The translations under genes were made by a program, and so were the position numbers. A stretch of 64,000 bases of DNA. Origin: a virus. Lineage: Duplodnaviria > Caudoviricetes. Below are positions 38,663 through 49,687 of the stretch, piece by piece. The stretch covers positions 1 to 64,000 of the IMG/VR virus record IMGVR_UViG_2974528200_000001; one strand, given 5' to 3'. Each line of letters opens with the position of its first letter. Positions within the stretch are counted from its first letter, which is position 1. The notes under the pieces were generated by a model. That model was not told the origin of the DNA and did not search any database. It was given only the letters and a program-made list of their open reading frames with translations.

Positions 38663-39010
38663 CTAGCTCCCGTTGGCTTCCTCGAATGCTTCAACGATGC
38701 CTTCGGGGATCTTGCCACGGTCGGAGACGTCATACCCTTCGGCGCGGGCCCATTCGCGGATCTGCTTGAGTTGTTCGCGCCGGCCCAGTGAGGAGGCGGT
38801 GATGCGGGTGGACTGTTTGCGCCCGCCAACTCGGTTTGCGTGTTCAATCCACTTCTCGAGTGCTTTCTCGAACTTCATGACGTTGGATGTGCGCAGGTCG
38901 ATGACGTAGTCGACGCCGCGAAAGCTGAAGGGGACCGCGTTGGCGTCCCCGTCGTCGATGGGTCGCCCGTCGAGGTCGTCGAGTACGGATACGTGTGTTA
39001 CGCGTGCCAT
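38663..39010 (-). CDS. lsr2: Lsr2-like nucleoid-associated protein
   Basis: DDLDG...YVIDL dimerisation domain; IREWAR..GY.VSDRGKIP DNA-binding domain. Confidence 0.93.
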   Translation of the reverse strand: MARVTHVSVLDDLDGRPIDDGDANAVPFSFRGVDYVIDLRTSNVMKFEKALEKWIEHANRVGGRKQSTRITASSLGRREQLKQIREWARAEGYDVSDRGKIPEGIVEAFEEANGS

Positions 39011-39025
39011 TCTATTTCTCCTTCG

Positions 39026-39517
39026 CTAGGTCTTGACTAGCACTCTCAAGTAGTCGTTCGTGTTCTCGATCGCCGTGGTGGCAACCCAGTTGCAGTTACC
39101 TTGTCCGACGACGTGTTCGATTCTGTAGGGCCCAGTGTTCCACTCTTTGGTACCGCACTTGTCCCAGAATTCAACCCAGGCTCCCCAGGCTCGCAGTCCT
39201 GATGGATCCGCTATGGGGTTGGTGGGAAGTGACTCCAGCCGTTTGTCGAGTCGCTGGAATTTCTCGATCATCCATCGTGCTGTCATGTAGCAGTCTTGGA
39301 TGCCGGCTTCGCAAACTCCCTCGTCGAGCTTGTTCTGAATCGCCTCGCATGTGGTTCCACAGTCGGCGATGTAGGTCGGCGTCTGTGTTTCTGACGTCTC
39401 GGTCGTGTCTAGCACATAGTCGGCGAGCCAATACAGGCCACCCCCGAGTGCTGCCACCAGAGCCAGTGACGCGAACACAATGACGGCCTTCGCGGGCGTT
39501 CTGACCTGTCTATCCAT
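39026..39517 (-). CDS. Membrane-anchored Cys-containing protein, probably leaderless
   Basis: N-terminal TM segment; ATG at 39517 lies 7 nt from a TAACAT -10 box. Confidence 0.7.
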   Translation of the reverse strand: MDRQVRTPAKAVIVFASLALVAALGGGLYWLADYVLDTTETSETQTPTYIADCGTTCEAIQNKLDEGVCEAGIQDCYMTARWMIEKFQRLDKRLESLPTNPIADPSGLRAWGAWVEFWDKCGTKEWNTGPYRIEHVVGQGNCNWVATTAIENTNDYLRVLVKT

Positions 39518-39524
39518 GCAGCGC

Positions 39525-39554
39525 ATGTTATCAGCATCACATATTGTTAGGCAA
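39525..39554 (-). promoter_or_regulatory. SigA-like promoter TTGCCT-N18-TAACAT
   Basis: Reverse complement of 39525-39554. Confidence 0.5.
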
Positions 39555-39562
39555 CATAACGA

Positions 39563-39598
39563 CTGAACCCCACACTCTTCGTTGAGTGTGGGGTTCAG
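39563..39598. terminator. Strong hairpin, likely bidirectional terminator
   Basis: ctgaaccccacactc/gagtgtggggttcag; T-rich tails on both strands. Confidence 0.75.
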
Positions 39599-39624
39599 GT
39601 CTTTTCTGGTGGCGCGGGCGTCAA
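39595..39624 (-). CDS. Micro-ORF 3: MTPAPPEKT
   Basis: TTG 8 nt after GGAG; CCA-CCA codons. Confidence 0.35.
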   Translation of the reverse strand: MTPAPPEKT

Positions 39625-39686
39625 ATCGAGGGCTCCAATCTGTCGTCCCCCCCGCTTTCGGGTTCGTTGTTCAGTTGTGTTTCTCG

Positions 39687-39716
39687 TCACCGGGATGGTG
39701 GGTCTCTCGCTTGCAT
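39687..39716 (-). CDS. Micro-ORF 2: MQARDPPSR
   Basis: GAAAGGAGG SD then ATG CAA GCG AGA GAC CCA CCA TCC CGG TGA. Confidence 0.6.
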   Translation of the reverse strand: MQARDPPSR

Positions 39717-39755
39717 CTGTCCTCCTTTCGACCTTTGTTTCGTTCGTTTCTCATA

Positions 39756-39782
39756 TCATGCTGGTGGCTCTCTGGCCTTCAT
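39756..39782 (-). CDS. Micro-ORF 1: MKAREPPA
   Basis: GAAGGGGTGG SD then ATG AAG GCC AGA GAG CCA CCA GCA TGA. Confidence 0.55.
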   Translation of the reverse strand: MKAREPPA

Positions 39783-39825
39783 TTCCCACCCCTTCCGACC
39801 TGCTTCTTTCTAACTGATGCTCTCG

Positions 39826-39854
39826 ACTATAGACAGTAGCTGTGACTACGTCAA
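39826..39854 (-). promoter_or_regulatory. Near-consensus SigA promoter TTGACG-N17-TATAGT driving the micro-ORF array
   Basis: Reverse complement of actata-N17-cgtcaa. Confidence 0.7.
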
Positions 39855-39980
39855 CACCTAGATGCATGTGGGCTAGCCCACTCGCTGTCCGAACCGTCTG
39901 GTACGGTGCTATCTAGCCGTAGTGCTAGAAACTAGACAGGAGATTGAATCCGTTGAATACCAAGCCATCTGGGATGCCCC

Positions 39981-41153
39981 ATGGCGGGTAAGCCCACCGA
40001 AGACAAGCCGTGGCCGGTAGCGGTTTACAACCGTGAAGTCGGTGGATATATCGGTCGCTTGGGGGACATCTGGGTGGAAGGACAGCTCACCCGAGTTCAC
40101 CGTCCGAGTGGTTCTGTCACCTTCATTGAGATGCGCGATACGGAAAAGAATCAATCCATTTCCGTTACCGCTTCTCCTGGCGTTGTGCCGGCTGACATCG
40201 CTTCTGGTGATCATGTGAAGGTATTGGGTCACCCGCAGTACTGGACGTCGCGAGGGACGCTATCGCTGCGAATCAGCCGCATTCTTCCCGTCGGCGAGGG
40301 CGCACTACAGGCCGAGATGGTCGAGACCGAGAAGCGGCTCGAATCCGAGGGCCTGTTCCATCCGCGACATAAGCAGCGGCTCCCCGCGGTCCCGAAGCTG
40401 ATTGGCCTGATCACCGCCGAAAACAGCGACGCCGAGAAGGATGTCCTGAATGTTGCGCGGGACCGCTGGCCGAACGTCGAGTTCAAGACCCTTCACATCC
40501 CCGTCCAGGGCGTTCGGTGCGCAGGCAGAGCTGTCGCTGCACTGAAGTCCCTTGACGCAGACCCCACGGTTGACGTCATCATCTTCGCCCGTGGTGGTGG
40601 GTCTAACCAGGACCTTCTGCCCTGGTCGGACGAGGCTCTCGCGCGCGCCGTGTTCGCCGCCAACACGCCCACAGTCAGCGCGATCGGGCACGAGAACGAC
40701 AAACCGATGCTGGACCGTGTCGTGGACCTGCGAGCCGCGACGCCGACGGACGCAGCGAAACGTGTCGTACCCAACCTGTCTAATGAGCTCCGGCAGATCG
40801 AACAGGTGTTCGAACAGATTGGAGGATCGATCCGTGGACAGGTGCAGAACAACCAACTGCGTGTCGACTCCATGCTCAACCAGGTCGCAGGGTCGATCGC
40901 CGGGTCCGTCAACCGCGAGCAGATCCACCTGCAGAACGCCGTCCAGTCCCTGTTCGTGCAGTCCGAGGCCTTCATCGGTAGCCGTGAGCGGCGAGTCGAC
41001 ACGCTAGGGGAGACCCTCAAGGCCCTGGACCACCAGAAGGTTCTCGACCGCGGTTACGCCGTGGTTCAGGGCGTAACCGGACCGACGCCGGCATCCGGCA
41101 CCCGGTTCACCGTCACCACGAAGGACGGCACGTTCGATGCCGTCGTCGCATAA
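39981..41153 (+). CDS. xseA: Exodeoxyribonuclease VII large subunit
   Basis: OB fold IWVEGQ; ARGGGS..DL, SAIGHE.D, D.RAATPT.AA; ..L.RGYAVV. Confidence 0.93.
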   Translation: MAGKPTEDKPWPVAVYNREVGGYIGRLGDIWVEGQLTRVHRPSGSVTFIEMRDTEKNQSISVTASPGVVPADIASGDHVKVLGHPQYWTSRGTLSLRISRILPVGEGALQAEMVETEKRLESEGLFHPRHKQRLPAVPKLIGLITAENSDAEKDVLNVARDRWPNVEFKTLHIPVQGVRCAGRAVAALKSLDADPTVDVIIFARGGGSNQDLLPWSDEALARAVFAANTPTVSAIGHENDKPMLDRVVDLRAATPTDAAKRVVPNLSNELRQIEQVFEQIGGSIRGQVQNNQLRVDSMLNQVAGSIAGSVNREQIHLQNAVQSLFVQSEAFIGSRERRVDTLGETLKALDHQKVLDRGYAVVQGVTGPTPASGTRFTVTTKDGTFDAVVA

Positions 41154-41165
41154 CAGAGGAGAGTC

Positions 41166-41351
41166 ATGACCTACGAAGAAGCCCAGGCCGAGCTCGAGCA
41201 GCTCACCCGCAAGATCGCCAGCGGTTCGATGACCATCACCGAACTCCTGCCAGCCTGGCAGCGCGCGCTCGAGCTCAAGGGGGTCTGCGAGGAGCATCTG
41301 CGCGTCGCCCGTGAGTCGCTGGCCGACGTCATCGAGAAGGCTAACTCGTGA
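41166..41351 (+). CDS. xseB: Exodeoxyribonuclease VII small subunit
   Basis: TYEEA..ELE.....I.SG.......W.R...L...C...L; adjacent to xseA. Confidence 0.88.
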   Translation: MTYEEAQAELEQLTRKIASGSMTITELLPAWQRALELKGVCEEHLRVARESLADVIEKANS

Positions 41352-47315: not shown

Positions 47316-48683
47316 GTGGCCGAAGAGCCGAAGAAGACCCGTGCCAAGAAGGGCACCGGTGGCATGCGCTACCGCGCCGACAAGGATGTGTGGATCGCGA
47401 GCGCGGACGTCGGCTTCGATGCCCAGGGGAACCGGGTGCGCCTCGAGGCGACCGGCAAGACCGAGTACCAGGCCCAGCAGCGGCTGAACAAGAAGGTGCG
47501 CGAGTACCACAAATCGCCGACCCAGTCGAAGGCGGCGAAGGGCACCGTGGCCGAGTGGCTCGACAAGTGGCTCAACGAGGTCCGCCGTGGCCGGATCCGC
47601 CCGACGACGAAGCGCTCCTACGACAGCCACATCCGCAACCACATCAATCCGGTCATGGGCAAGAAGAAGCTCGCCAAGCTCACGCCCGAGGACATCCGGC
47701 AGATGATGCGTGACATCGAGAAGCGTCAGGCCGACGCGCGCAAGGCCGCGGCGGCAGCTGGCTCCAGCACTCGCGTCGGCGACGGTCCGCGGTGTGCAAA
47801 GTACGCCCACACGATCATGCGCAAGGCCCTCGGCGACGCCGTCCGTGAGGGGCTCGTTCCGCGCAACGTAGCGAGCAAGGATTACGTGGAACCGATGGGG
47901 GCCGTCGAGAAAGAGCAGAAGGCGCTCGACGCCGCCCAGGCCCGCAACTTCCTGCGGATCGCACTCGAGAGCAACGACCCTTGGGCGACCAGATGGGCCG
48001 CTGCATTGTTGACTGGCACTCGTCAGGGTGAGCTCATTGGTTTGACATGGGATCGGGTCGACTTCGAAAACAAAAGGCTCTACTTCACCAAGCAGCTGCA
48101 ACTCCTGGGAAATACCCACGGCTGCGGAGAAGCGGATGAGAATGGCCTATACCCGTGCGGCAAATTGGTTGCGCGCGCGTGCCCGAAGCGCGAGTTCGAC
48201 ATCGACGAGAAGTATCGGTCCGAAACCGAGATCATCAGCGGCTCGATCGCCTGGGTGCCGACCAAGACCAAGATGTCCAAGCGCGCGCTGCCCATGATCG
48301 AACCGCTCGCGAAGATCCTCCGAGCGCACCAAGCCATGACCGCCGGCCAACCCAACCCGCACAACCTGGTCTGGCACGAGCCGGATGGTCGACCCTTGAA
48401 CCCGCGCAAGGACTACGACAACTGGCTGGCCGCACTCGACCGGGCAGGCCTCGAGCACGTGAAGCTCCACAGCACGCGCGCCAGCGCGGCGAGCATCATG
48501 AGTGAGATGGGTATCGACCGCGAGGTCATCGCCGAGATCCTGGGCCACACCAACCTGTCCACCACGGCCCTGTACGCCAAGGTCGGCGAGACCTACCGGC
48601 GCGAGGCGCTCAGCTCGCTCGGGAGCCTGGTCGATATGTTCGGTGAGAGTGACGGTGGACACACTCCCGCGTTGGACGCCTGA
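47316..48683 (+). CDS. int: Tyrosine integrase
   Basis: GTRQGE (R), TKTK (K), HSTR, LGH, ALY catalytic set. Confidence 0.95.
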   Translation: MAEEPKKTRAKKGTGGMRYRADKDVWIASADVGFDAQGNRVRLEATGKTEYQAQQRLNKKVREYHKSPTQSKAAKGTVAEWLDKWLNEVRRGRIRPTTKRSYDSHIRNHINPVMGKKKLAKLTPEDIRQMMRDIEKRQADARKAAAAAGSSTRVGDGPRCAKYAHTIMRKALGDAVREGLVPRNVASKDYVEPMGAVEKEQKALDAAQARNFLRIALESNDPWATRWAAALLTGTRQGELIGLTWDRVDFENKRLYFTKQLQLLGNTHGCGEADENGLYPCGKLVARACPKREFDIDEKYRSETEIISGSIAWVPTKTKMSKRALPMIEPLAKILRAHQAMTAGQPNPHNLVWHEPDGRPLNPRKDYDNWLAALDRAGLEHVKLHSTRASAASIMSEMGIDREVIAEILGHTNLSTTALYAKVGETYRREALSSLGSLVDMFGESDGGHTPALDA

Positions 48684-48702
48684 CCATCTGACCGGTCGGT
48701 TA

Positions 48703-48734
48703 ACCCCCACCTGTACGTTTGGGTAGGTGGGGGT
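48703..48734 (+). terminator. Hairpin after integrase
   Basis: acccccacctg/taggtgggggt. Confidence 0.5.
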
Positions 48735-48943
48735 GGGACTTTAGTCCCGATGTCGCAGATTTGGCGGCACGGCGTTTACTTAGACGGGTAGACGCATGTA
48801 ACCTTCGTATTGCTAACGACGAATAGGTCGTCGGAAGTATTCACCCCCACCCCCGTGTCGGATTGTGTTATCCCCGGTTCAGAAACATGTGCCCTGGGTC
48901 ACTAGGTCGGCAAAGCCTTTAATCAGAAGAGGTTGAAAGCCCC

Positions 48944-49150
48944 ATGTACGCACAGCGTGCCTCGAATGTCCTCACCACTGCAGGTCAGATGGTAACAACG
49001 GACGTTGAGATCATTGACGGTGAGCCATTGTTTGTTATCCAGTATGGCGAAGGAGCCGATCAATTGATCGAATTCGACGTCGAGGGGATTCGACAGCTGT
49101 TTACGAAGCTCGGCAGCATTCTCGGCGTGAGCATCGCCGGCGTTGCCTGA
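48944..49150 (+). CDS. Hypothetical protein
   Basis: 68-aa ORF with GAGG SD. Confidence 0.55.
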   Translation: MYAQRASNVLTTAGQMVTTDVEIIDGEPLFVIQYGEGADQLIEFDVEGIRQLFTKLGSILGVSIAGVA

Positions 49151-49166
49151 ATAACCTGAAAAAGGG

Positions 49167-49200
49167 GCAACCCCCGCCTAGTACGTTAGGCGGGGGTTGC
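49167..49200. terminator. Bidirectional terminator between convergent genes
   Basis: gcaacccccgccta/taggcgggggttgc; A-run upstream, T-run downstream. Confidence 0.7.
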
Positions 49201-49582
49201 TTTCTTCATTTCCGGGTCCGTATTTGACATCCGAGATGAATGTCCGGATCAGTTCGTCGATGGCCTTGCGTTGCCGGCTGGTCAGGACTTCCGAACCTAC
49301 CGGCGGTTCGTAGGGCGGCGAGGCTGCGTCCCAGTTCTCGCCGAGCCAGTCCAAGACCTTCTTGACGTTCATGCCCAAGGCCTCGGCGACACGCTCAAGC
49401 GTCTGTCGCTCAACGAGCCTCGGGTCCGCCTTGCCGGTGATAAGTCGGACGACGGTGGTCGTGTGCAGACCAGCTTCCTTGGCCAGAGCGTTGAAGCTCG
49501 GGTCACCGGTCCGTGGATTGGTGAGACCCTGCTTCAGCATCGCTTTGGCCCAGGGCTGCGGTACTTCAGTGGTTTGTCTCAT
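49178..49582 (-). CDS. Immunity repressor-like HTH protein
   Basis: SFNALAKEAGLHTTTVVRLI helix-turn-helix; near int, divergent from early operon. Confidence 0.75.
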   Translation of the reverse strand: MRQTTEVPQPWAKAMLKQGLTNPRTGDPSFNALAKEAGLHTTTVVRLITGKADPRLVERQTLERVAEALGMNVKKVLDWLGENWDAASPPYEPPVGSEVLTSRQRKAIDELIRTFISDVKYGPGNEESNPRLTY

Positions 49583-49651
49583 AGTGCCGACTAGTGTCTC
49601 ACGCACAACTGCACGCGTCAACAACTGTTGTCAGTGACACAAGCTATAGTG

Positions 49652-49672
49652 TGTCTAACGCACAAGTAGACA
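49652..49672. promoter_or_regulatory. Best-matching operator palindrome TGTCTA-N9-TAGACA in the repressor/early divergence
   Basis: tgtctaacgcacaagtagaca. Confidence 0.65.
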
Positions 49673-49687
49673 GCCAAGGAGGCAAGC

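Follow-up and report, generated by a model that had tools for sequence, protein, structure and literature searches.

Ribosome-coupled attenuators (pyrBI/pyrE) and codon-sensing leader peptides (his, trp) are established regulatory systems, and stalled-ribosome stabilisers are also known, ermC being one example. In the arrest peptides of the RAPP/RGPP class, comprising ApdA, ApdP, ApcA, SecM (RAGP), CruR and seven uORFs of Streptomyces lividans (PMC12992588, PMC10951233), the ribosome halts with two Pro codons in its P and A sites, and the arrest is EF-P-resistant. When ApdP was mutagenised, arrest was fully retained with G at the second position of the motif and partly with P, D, S or E, as well as with V in B. 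subtilis (PMC12992588); in proteomes RGPP, RDPP and RSPP are underrepresented. Published work disagrees on how much of the nascent chain is required, since the motif by itself was insufficient without an N-terminal region in one study (PMC12992588), whereas another cites evidence that a minimal RxPP suffices (PMC10951233). All the RAPP-type arrest peptides described in the literature searched are bacterial and single, and they are mostly attached to a secretion signal or a sensor domain. With regard to codon choice, ProM is the sole tRNA that decodes CCA in E. coli, and strong Pro-Pro pauses are enriched in this codon (PMC8129111). No report of RxPP micro-ORF arrays in phages was found in the literature searched.

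The RxPP cassette in a Gordonia-type phage and its relatives

The stretch of DNA analysed here (the window, 64,000 nucleotides) covers the first 64 kb of a phage record 91.5 kb long. By its sequence the phage is Gordonia cluster-CQ-like, and judged from its gene content it is temperate, with an integrase and a repressor at 47316-49606. The Gordonia phage OneUp is its closest relative, with 85% identity over the region, and the cluster CQ1 phages come next. The cassette lies in the intergenic stretch that separates xseA (rightward, 39981) from two leftward genes, for a membrane protein and Lsr2. The features of the locus are as follows.

38663-39010, minus strand: lsr2, nucleoid-associated silencer (Pfam PF11774 and PF23359)
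39026-39517, minus strand: membrane-anchored protein of unknown function (phrog_13269), orthologues of which are annotated 'membrane protein'
39525-39554, minus strand: second promoter-like site, TTGCCT-N18-TAACAT, followed after 7 nt by the ATG (39517) of a leaderless start, with a box conserved in relatives
39563-39598, no strand assigned: 15-bp hairpin, terminator-like on both strands, with a hairpin of different sequence at the same place in every relative
39595-39624, minus strand: terminal Arg-less micro-ORF, TTG-MTPAPPEKT, its stop inside the hairpin 5' arm, with analogues in relatives
39621-39655, minus strand: unit 3, G-rich SD (39655-39647) and TTG-MEPSI (39638-39621), in the register of units 1 and 2, without Pro-Pro, kept in OneUp
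39687-39729, minus strand: unit 2, SD (39729-39721) and MQARDPPSR (39716-39687), in the register of unit 1, identified from the sequence
39756-39795, minus strand: unit 1, SD (39795-39786) and MKAREPPA (39782-39756), R-E-P-P with CCA-CCA, with an orthologous unit in all CQ phages examined
39806-39835, no strand assigned: operator-like TGTCTA...TAGA dyad covering both the -10 box and the start site, a putative function suggested by motif enrichment
39826-39854, minus strand: SigA-type promoter, TTGACG-N17-TATAGT, predicted start about 39819, boxes conserved in OneUp, the CQ1 phages and L119

The preliminary description of this locus had proposed three xPP micro-ORFs with SDs, a 66-nt period and CCA-CCA in each, and all of these elements were present as described. 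The three ORFs are real, but the locus holds four SD-led micro-ORFs, TTG-MEPSI having been overlooked. This ORF has GGGGGG as its SD, and its stop and the start codon of the last ORF overlap in TTGA, an overlap repeated in OneUp, where the counterpart is MEPTI. The A-rich spacer that had been counted as part of the repeated unit did not hold up, its sequence not being conserved even in OneUp. The arrangement is far beyond what chance produces, as two SD-start-RxPP units were found in none of 20,000 shuffles of the region and a pair of CCACCA motifs 40-100 nt apart in none of 150 shuffled genomes; the two SD-start-RxPP units of the window are the only ones in the 91.5-kb genome. CCA-CCA was correctly called unusual for this genome, where CCA makes up 10.9% of Pro codons and CCA-CCA one of the 31 Pro-Pro pairs in long ORFs.

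A search of related phages, which had been suggested as a check, found RxPP units in five phage genera (taxonomy per records), with frame, SD and start kept and 1-4 Arg-x-Pro-Pro units in each cassette. The order of promoter, RxPP units, hairpin and then lsr2, with or without the membrane gene, is common to these relatives, and the position of the array before lsr2 is conserved across the five genera. Four Arg units were counted in Daredevil and Mollymur, three in Bantam, SpeedDemon and DatBoi, two in OneUp and a single one in the 14 CQ1 genomes and the metagenomic relative L119. Terminal xPP ORFs analogous to MTPAPPEKT are present in Daredevil, Bantam, SpeedDemon, DatBoi and Mollymur. The micro-ORFs are unannotated in every GenBank record examined, in agreement with the prediction that gene callers would miss them. 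By these sequence comparisons, the cassette is real, conserved and unannotated.

The array is absent from DD phages, which have xseA and no lsr2 at this locus. It is also absent from six other lsr2-bearing actinophages (Trax, Syleon, Omega, JoeDirt, Whirlwind and Nebkiss), which ruled out a general coupling of the array to lsr2. Pattern scans of viral, metagenome and genome collections returned the Gordonia CQ/DL arrays and one unrelated phage, the remaining matches lying mostly within genes or antisense to genes; these were exact-match scans, by which absence is not demonstrable. The unrelated phage (L021, a 107-kb contig, IMG/VR 3300009149_000016) carries two RxPP ORFs with CCA-CCA at 2680-2895, after a nucleotide-kinase-like gene; one of the two reads SD-MNARGPP-stop, and a third CCACCA is out of frame. 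Solitary intergenic SD-led MNAR[E/D/A]PP micro-ORFs were seen in further unrelated contigs (L030, 1393-1420; L031, 1806-1833; L035, 5697-5759) and may be chance occurrences or analogues. On the other side of the array, the window encodes a complete exonuclease VII (large and small subunits, 39981-41351), divergent from the array and common to CQ, DD and DL phages.

Selection on the RxPP units

Every Gordonia unit has, behind an SD, an in-frame start codon 9, 12, 15 or 18 nt before CCA-CCA, with ATG, GTG and TTG alternating among units. In the 19 distinct non-terminal units Arg is invariant (19/19) while being written with five codons drawn from both codon boxes, and the residue preceding it varies mostly at the third base. 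The x position is occupied by G (six units), E (six), D (five) or S (two), Ser being written both AGC and TCG. The metagenomic L119 has CCA-CCG, and so retains Pro-Pro via a synonymous change. In the window, OneUp, L119 and 13 of the 14 CQ1 genomes, unit 1 is kept by synonymous changes, and divergence sets in beyond Pro-Pro; across the relatives, the frames run on for 0-86 codons past Pro-Pro with no similarity to one another. Homologues that conserve nucleotides but not frame, SD or Pro-Pro had been named as a finding that would speak against the proposal. In contrast, the start swaps, the Arg codon changes and the CCA-CCG variant all follow the genetic code.

This pattern of substitution shows each unit to be under selection for initiation and for spelling RxPP, with nothing needed past the second Pro. 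A stall site would be expected to leave such a signature, whereas a peptide product or a structured RNA would not. The proposal of translated micro-ORFs carrying a RAPP-like stall motif is thus well supported by comparative evidence, and it is quite likely that the units act as translated pause or stall elements. As to what happens at such a unit, we infer stalling, with a pause or an abortive cycle no less possible than stable arrest, since the literature is split on the short N-terminus and short peptidyl-tRNAs tend to drop off.

Two observations concern the single-unit arrays. In Miskis (L005), Pro-Ser replaces Pro-Pro in unit 1, the sole case in the 14 CQ1 genomes and a natural loss-of-motif control. 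About 60 nt after unit 1 the single-unit arrays (L002-L005, about 2530-2560; L119, 1872-1880) have a second strong SD with no usable start codon, which would be either a relic or a 30S-binding site.

Promoters, hairpin and the route to lsr2

The near-consensus promoter TTGACG-N17-TATAGT was found where proposed, at 39854-39826, and is the only sigma-70-like match in 12 kb; shuffles give 3.4 such matches, so the match by itself is not significant. Relatives keep both its -35 and its -10 box with little or no change. The TGTCTA/TAGACA motif of the dyad lying over it is enriched genome-wide (39 half-sites against 17 expected, and 24 loose dyads against 4.5) and also occurs in the immunity region, between the repressor (49178-49606) and its divergent gene. 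The motif is probably the operator of a phage regulator, and since a dyad of this genome-enriched, immunity-region motif overlaps the array promoter, the promoter is probably under the control of a phage regulator. Sites in the window lie at 39806-39940, 42516, 49600-49680, 50951 and 57133, at promoter-like sites and beside the repressor gene, and further ones at genome coordinates 65294, 69735, 75232 and 84953, often as a dyad. In the DL phages the corresponding promoter is overlaid by another dyad, CTGTTGC...GCAACA. Outside the window, the minus strand of the record genome at 85008-90670 carries about nine near-consensus leftward promoters, most of them with a shared CCCAC(C) box directly after TTGACA.

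The 'strong terminator' of the preliminary description was borne out in the strength of the hairpin fold (z of about -5) but not in its strand, the better T-run being on the plus strand and not on that of the array, for whose transcript the hairpin is a candidate terminator. The description of the locus as a stand-alone unit likewise applies to this phage, where a second promoter follows the hairpin, but not to the DL relatives. A TANNNT box lies at -13 from the downstream start codon in all six CQ-type loci tested, and one weak -10-like candidate lies between hairpin and lsr2 in the Bantam-type phages. In Daredevil and Mollymur no such TANNNT (-10-like) box was found between hairpin and lsr2, and read-through thus appears to be the only route to lsr2 in these two phages.

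The units are spaced 56-69 nt apart across arrays, which would leave room for about one paused ribosome per unit. Their intervals are divisible by three in 11 of 15 cases (p = 0.002, the intervals not being fully independent) and in seven of nine when one is taken per lineage (p = 0.008). Units 1-3 of the window share a single register interrupted only by TGA codons, and in Mollymur all five units lie in one open 94-codon frame, the rule of a shared register being broken only in Daredevil. In every multi-unit array the last Pro-Pro ORF is Arg-less and stops at or in the 5' arm of the hairpin; it is reached by in-frame read-on (Mollymur, Daredevil unit 3) or through a nearby or overlapping stop-start (window, OneUp, Bantam). 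The leader ORF accordingly ends in or adjoining the 5' arm in the window, OneUp, Daredevil, Bantam, DatBoi and Mollymur, whereas in the single-unit CQ1 phages and L119 the RxPP ORF stops well short of the hairpin. When the ribosome footprint was masked in folding, a ribosome at the last stop covered much of the 5' arm and strongly weakened the local fold in all five multi-unit arrays modelled. In the model of the window, a ribosome paused at the last Pro-Pro left a 14-bp stem, and only one at the stop melted the stem. The SD of lsr2 did not lie within the hairpin in the DL folds. In the Bantam-type phages (L009, L025), a conserved GGTGGC immediately beyond the hairpin is a potential pairing partner of GCCACC in the last unit, and this pairing would lengthen the stem.

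A possible attenuator and competing readings

Control of read-through to the membrane/Lsr2 genes had been among the roles suggested earlier, and of these it is the option that fits best. We favour, tentatively and at slightly less than an even chance, a cassette that serves as a ribosome-coupled attenuator leader tuning read-through towards lsr2. The translated leader would consist of repeated minimal stall units, each an SD, a start and two or three residues followed by Arg-[Gly/Asp/Glu/Ser]-Pro-Pro. Ribosomes that pass these RxPP checkpoints would get to the last ORF by in-frame read-on or stop/start coupling, and a ribosome on that ORF would cover the 5' arm of the hairpin, allowing RNA polymerase to read into the membrane-protein and lsr2 genes. 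When Pro-Pro synthesis is slow, ribosomes would be held upstream, the hairpin would form and an RNA of about 265 nt would be released. The CCA-written checkpoints would in this way set the frequency with which ribosomes arrive at the last ORF early enough to prevent the hairpin from forming, and in this phage the read-through would only supplement the separate leaderless promoter. Such attenuation is feasible, since in E. coli a terminator is repressed when a ribosome sits close to a stop codon (PMC4824070), and transcription elongation in M. tuberculosis is translation-driven (PMC10937400). The lack of the array in the DD phages also counts in its favour. Against it stand the conserved leaderless promoter of the downstream gene, present in the window phage and all CQ relatives, and the several separate SDs per array, which an attenuator does not require. 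The RxPP unit moreover survives without the attenuator geometry in CQ1 and L119, as their single-unit ORF stops well before the hairpin. Also to be set against it are the REPP and RDPP motifs of the window, only partly permissive in ApdP, the insufficiency of the motif by itself in one study (PMC12992588), the 14-bp stem left in the window by a ribosome at the last Pro-Pro, the better T-run on the opposite strand, Miskis with no Pro-Pro, and the tendency of peptidyl-tRNAs of such shortness to drop off (PMC10192219).

The second promoter, the single-unit CQ1 form and the multiple SDs are explained if the RNA acts in trans, a reading that we consider possible though fairly unlikely. A short and abundant stand-alone transcript would then park one ribosome per unit, or cycle through initiation and peptidyl-tRNA drop-off like the lambda bar minigenes, and so soak up ribosomes, EF-P, rescue factors or Pth, or act as bait for a defence directed at translation. 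In its favour, the array is furnished with a promoter and a hairpin, and in CQ phages the downstream gene is served by another promoter; the 1-4 units each have a strong SD and are spaced so as to suit one ribosome; CQ1 and L119 still possess a single unit and a second SD lacking a start; and minigenes provide a precedent (PMC2490762). A sponge, however, has no need of a fixed site before lsr2, a terminal ORF on the hairpin or a shared register. More specifically, the short transcript could be a dedicated multi-ribosome trap consisting solely of repeated initiation sites, each directly followed by an RxPP arrest. Co-expressed with Lsr2 at lytic onset, it would act in trans as a sponge or decoy that takes up ribosomes, EF-P or rescue factors, or would counter a defence that senses translation; this we regard as unlikely. 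The trapping of tRNA-Pro(UGG), raised in the preliminary description, is disfavoured, CCA accounting for 8-20% of Pro codons in array phages against 3-15% in those without the array (small samples, ORF proxies). Starvation for this tRNA predicted avoidance of CCA in array phages and the opposite was found; the phages themselves depend on CCA, and neither this genome nor the scanned regions of relatives yielded a tRNA-Pro gene, which argues against starvation as the purpose. CCA makes up 14-17% of Pro codons in five of six DL regions (L120-L125) at 65% GC, and 3-12% in lower-GC phages without the array, except Yvonnetastic (13-15%).

Parked ribosomes might instead protect the RNA in cis, as a 5' stabiliser or a shield against Rho or RNases that sets the half-life of the lsr2 message independently of termination at the hairpin. 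Such protection would account for arrays with several SDs, for the SD that has no start and for the lack of constraint beyond Pro-Pro, but it leaves the terminal ORF ending in the stem and the shared register unexplained, and the main downstream message of CQ phages would start after the hairpin; we consider it improbable. That the cassette is functional only in DL phages and a decaying relic in CQ phages is suggested by the loss of most units in CQ1, the Pro-Ser of Miskis and the lack of Pro-Pro in unit 3 of the window, yet a decaying unit 1 would not be expected to be held by synonymous changes in the window, OneUp, 13/14 CQ1 genomes and L119 while the adjoining sequence diverges, and a relic is thus very unlikely. 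The short ORFs of the window and OneUp, which end soon after Pro-Pro, speak for effector peptides of 8-9 residues, released as inhibitors or signals. The earlier suggestion that inhibitory peptides are released is nevertheless disfavoured, as the tails after Pro-Pro vary from 0 to 86 codons in relatives and are unconserved, Mollymur encoding one 94-residue chain; with no export signal, and with near-invariant CCA codons that are irrelevant to a peptide product, such a role is highly doubtful. There is hardly any likelihood that the ORFs are incidental to a non-coding RNA or DNA repeat, whether type III antitoxin-like pseudoknots, a CRISPR-repeat mimic or protein-binding boxes. The near-invariance of CCACCA and the occurrence of a similar CCCACCAC box in the spacers of the right-end promoters speak for such a repeat, but the start swaps, codon-box changes and CCA-CCG obey the genetic code. 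An Rfam search of the array gave nothing near the gathering score, the array showed no significant or conserved RNA fold (z = -0.63), and no consistent pairing partner of CCACCA was found. Pseudoknot repeats like those of type III antitoxins, a CRISPR-repeat mimic and an SD:CCACC hairpin were rejected on the grounds of this missing partner and fold.

If the attenuator switch is real, a temperate phage would set its Lsr2 silencer by the capacity of the host for making Pro-Pro bonds, an input not found for phages in the literature searched. If the trap in trans is true, it would be a new kind of phage effector, acting via translation of an RNA and not via protein or base pairing. In either case the locus is cheap to test, as OneUp, Bantam, Daredevil, Mollymur and the host G. 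terrae 3612 are all cultured.

Set beside the described systems, the array resembles the lambda bar minigenes (PMC2490762) as phage-borne, SD-led ORFs of few codons, with rare codons near the start and likely peptidyl-tRNA drop-off; the bar ORFs, however, are two codons long and isolated, whereas the array has a conserved RxPP, tandem units and a fixed regulatory position. With the EF-P-dependent XPP pause motifs (PMC8129111) it shares EPP, DPP, APP and GPP, with CCA codons read by one tRNA, but here such motifs are the entire content of dedicated mini-genes. The leader ORF ends in or at a terminator stem, as in ribosome-coupled attenuators of the pyrBI/pyrE type and the his and trp leader peptides (PMC4824070 for the geometry), and its codon bias points to one tRNA as in the codon-sensing his and trp leaders. 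Unlike pyrBI/pyrE, his and trp, it has several initiation sites and a phage nucleoid-protein gene downstream, and no alternative antiterminator helix was found at the array. The likeness to the RAPP/RGPP class lies in the invariant Arg, a small or acidic second residue from the permissive set, the Pro-Pro, conservation that ends at the A-site Pro, and a position upstream of a co-oriented gene. An Arg followed by a permissive residue is found in 19/19 distinct non-terminal units, the E and D of the window being only partly permissive, and the window motifs are REPP and RDPP, not RAPP or RGPP. In contrast to that class, the array is phage-encoded in 1-4 copies, each with its own SD; its units have just 3-4 residues before Arg, with no signal sequence or sensor domain, and the N-terminal module is lacking, longer N-termini arising only by read-on in Mollymur and DatBoi. 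The array ends on a terminator-like hairpin and not on an SD-masking stem, and SD unmasking does not apply, as the downstream start is leaderless in CQ phages and the hairpin excludes the lsr2 SD in DL folds. True RAPP arrest is EF-P-resistant, unlike XPP pauses, and the array units could belong to either class. With the motif reduced to a six- or seven-residue nascent chain and then repeated, the array is a natural test of RxPP stalling without the N-terminal module, the point on which the two studies disagree (PMC12992588, PMC10951233). Thus, while from its sequence the cassette is not a member of the RAPP arrest-peptide class as defined, having neither a sensor domain or N-terminal module nor an SD-masking stem, it probably works like a RAPP-type arrest switch.
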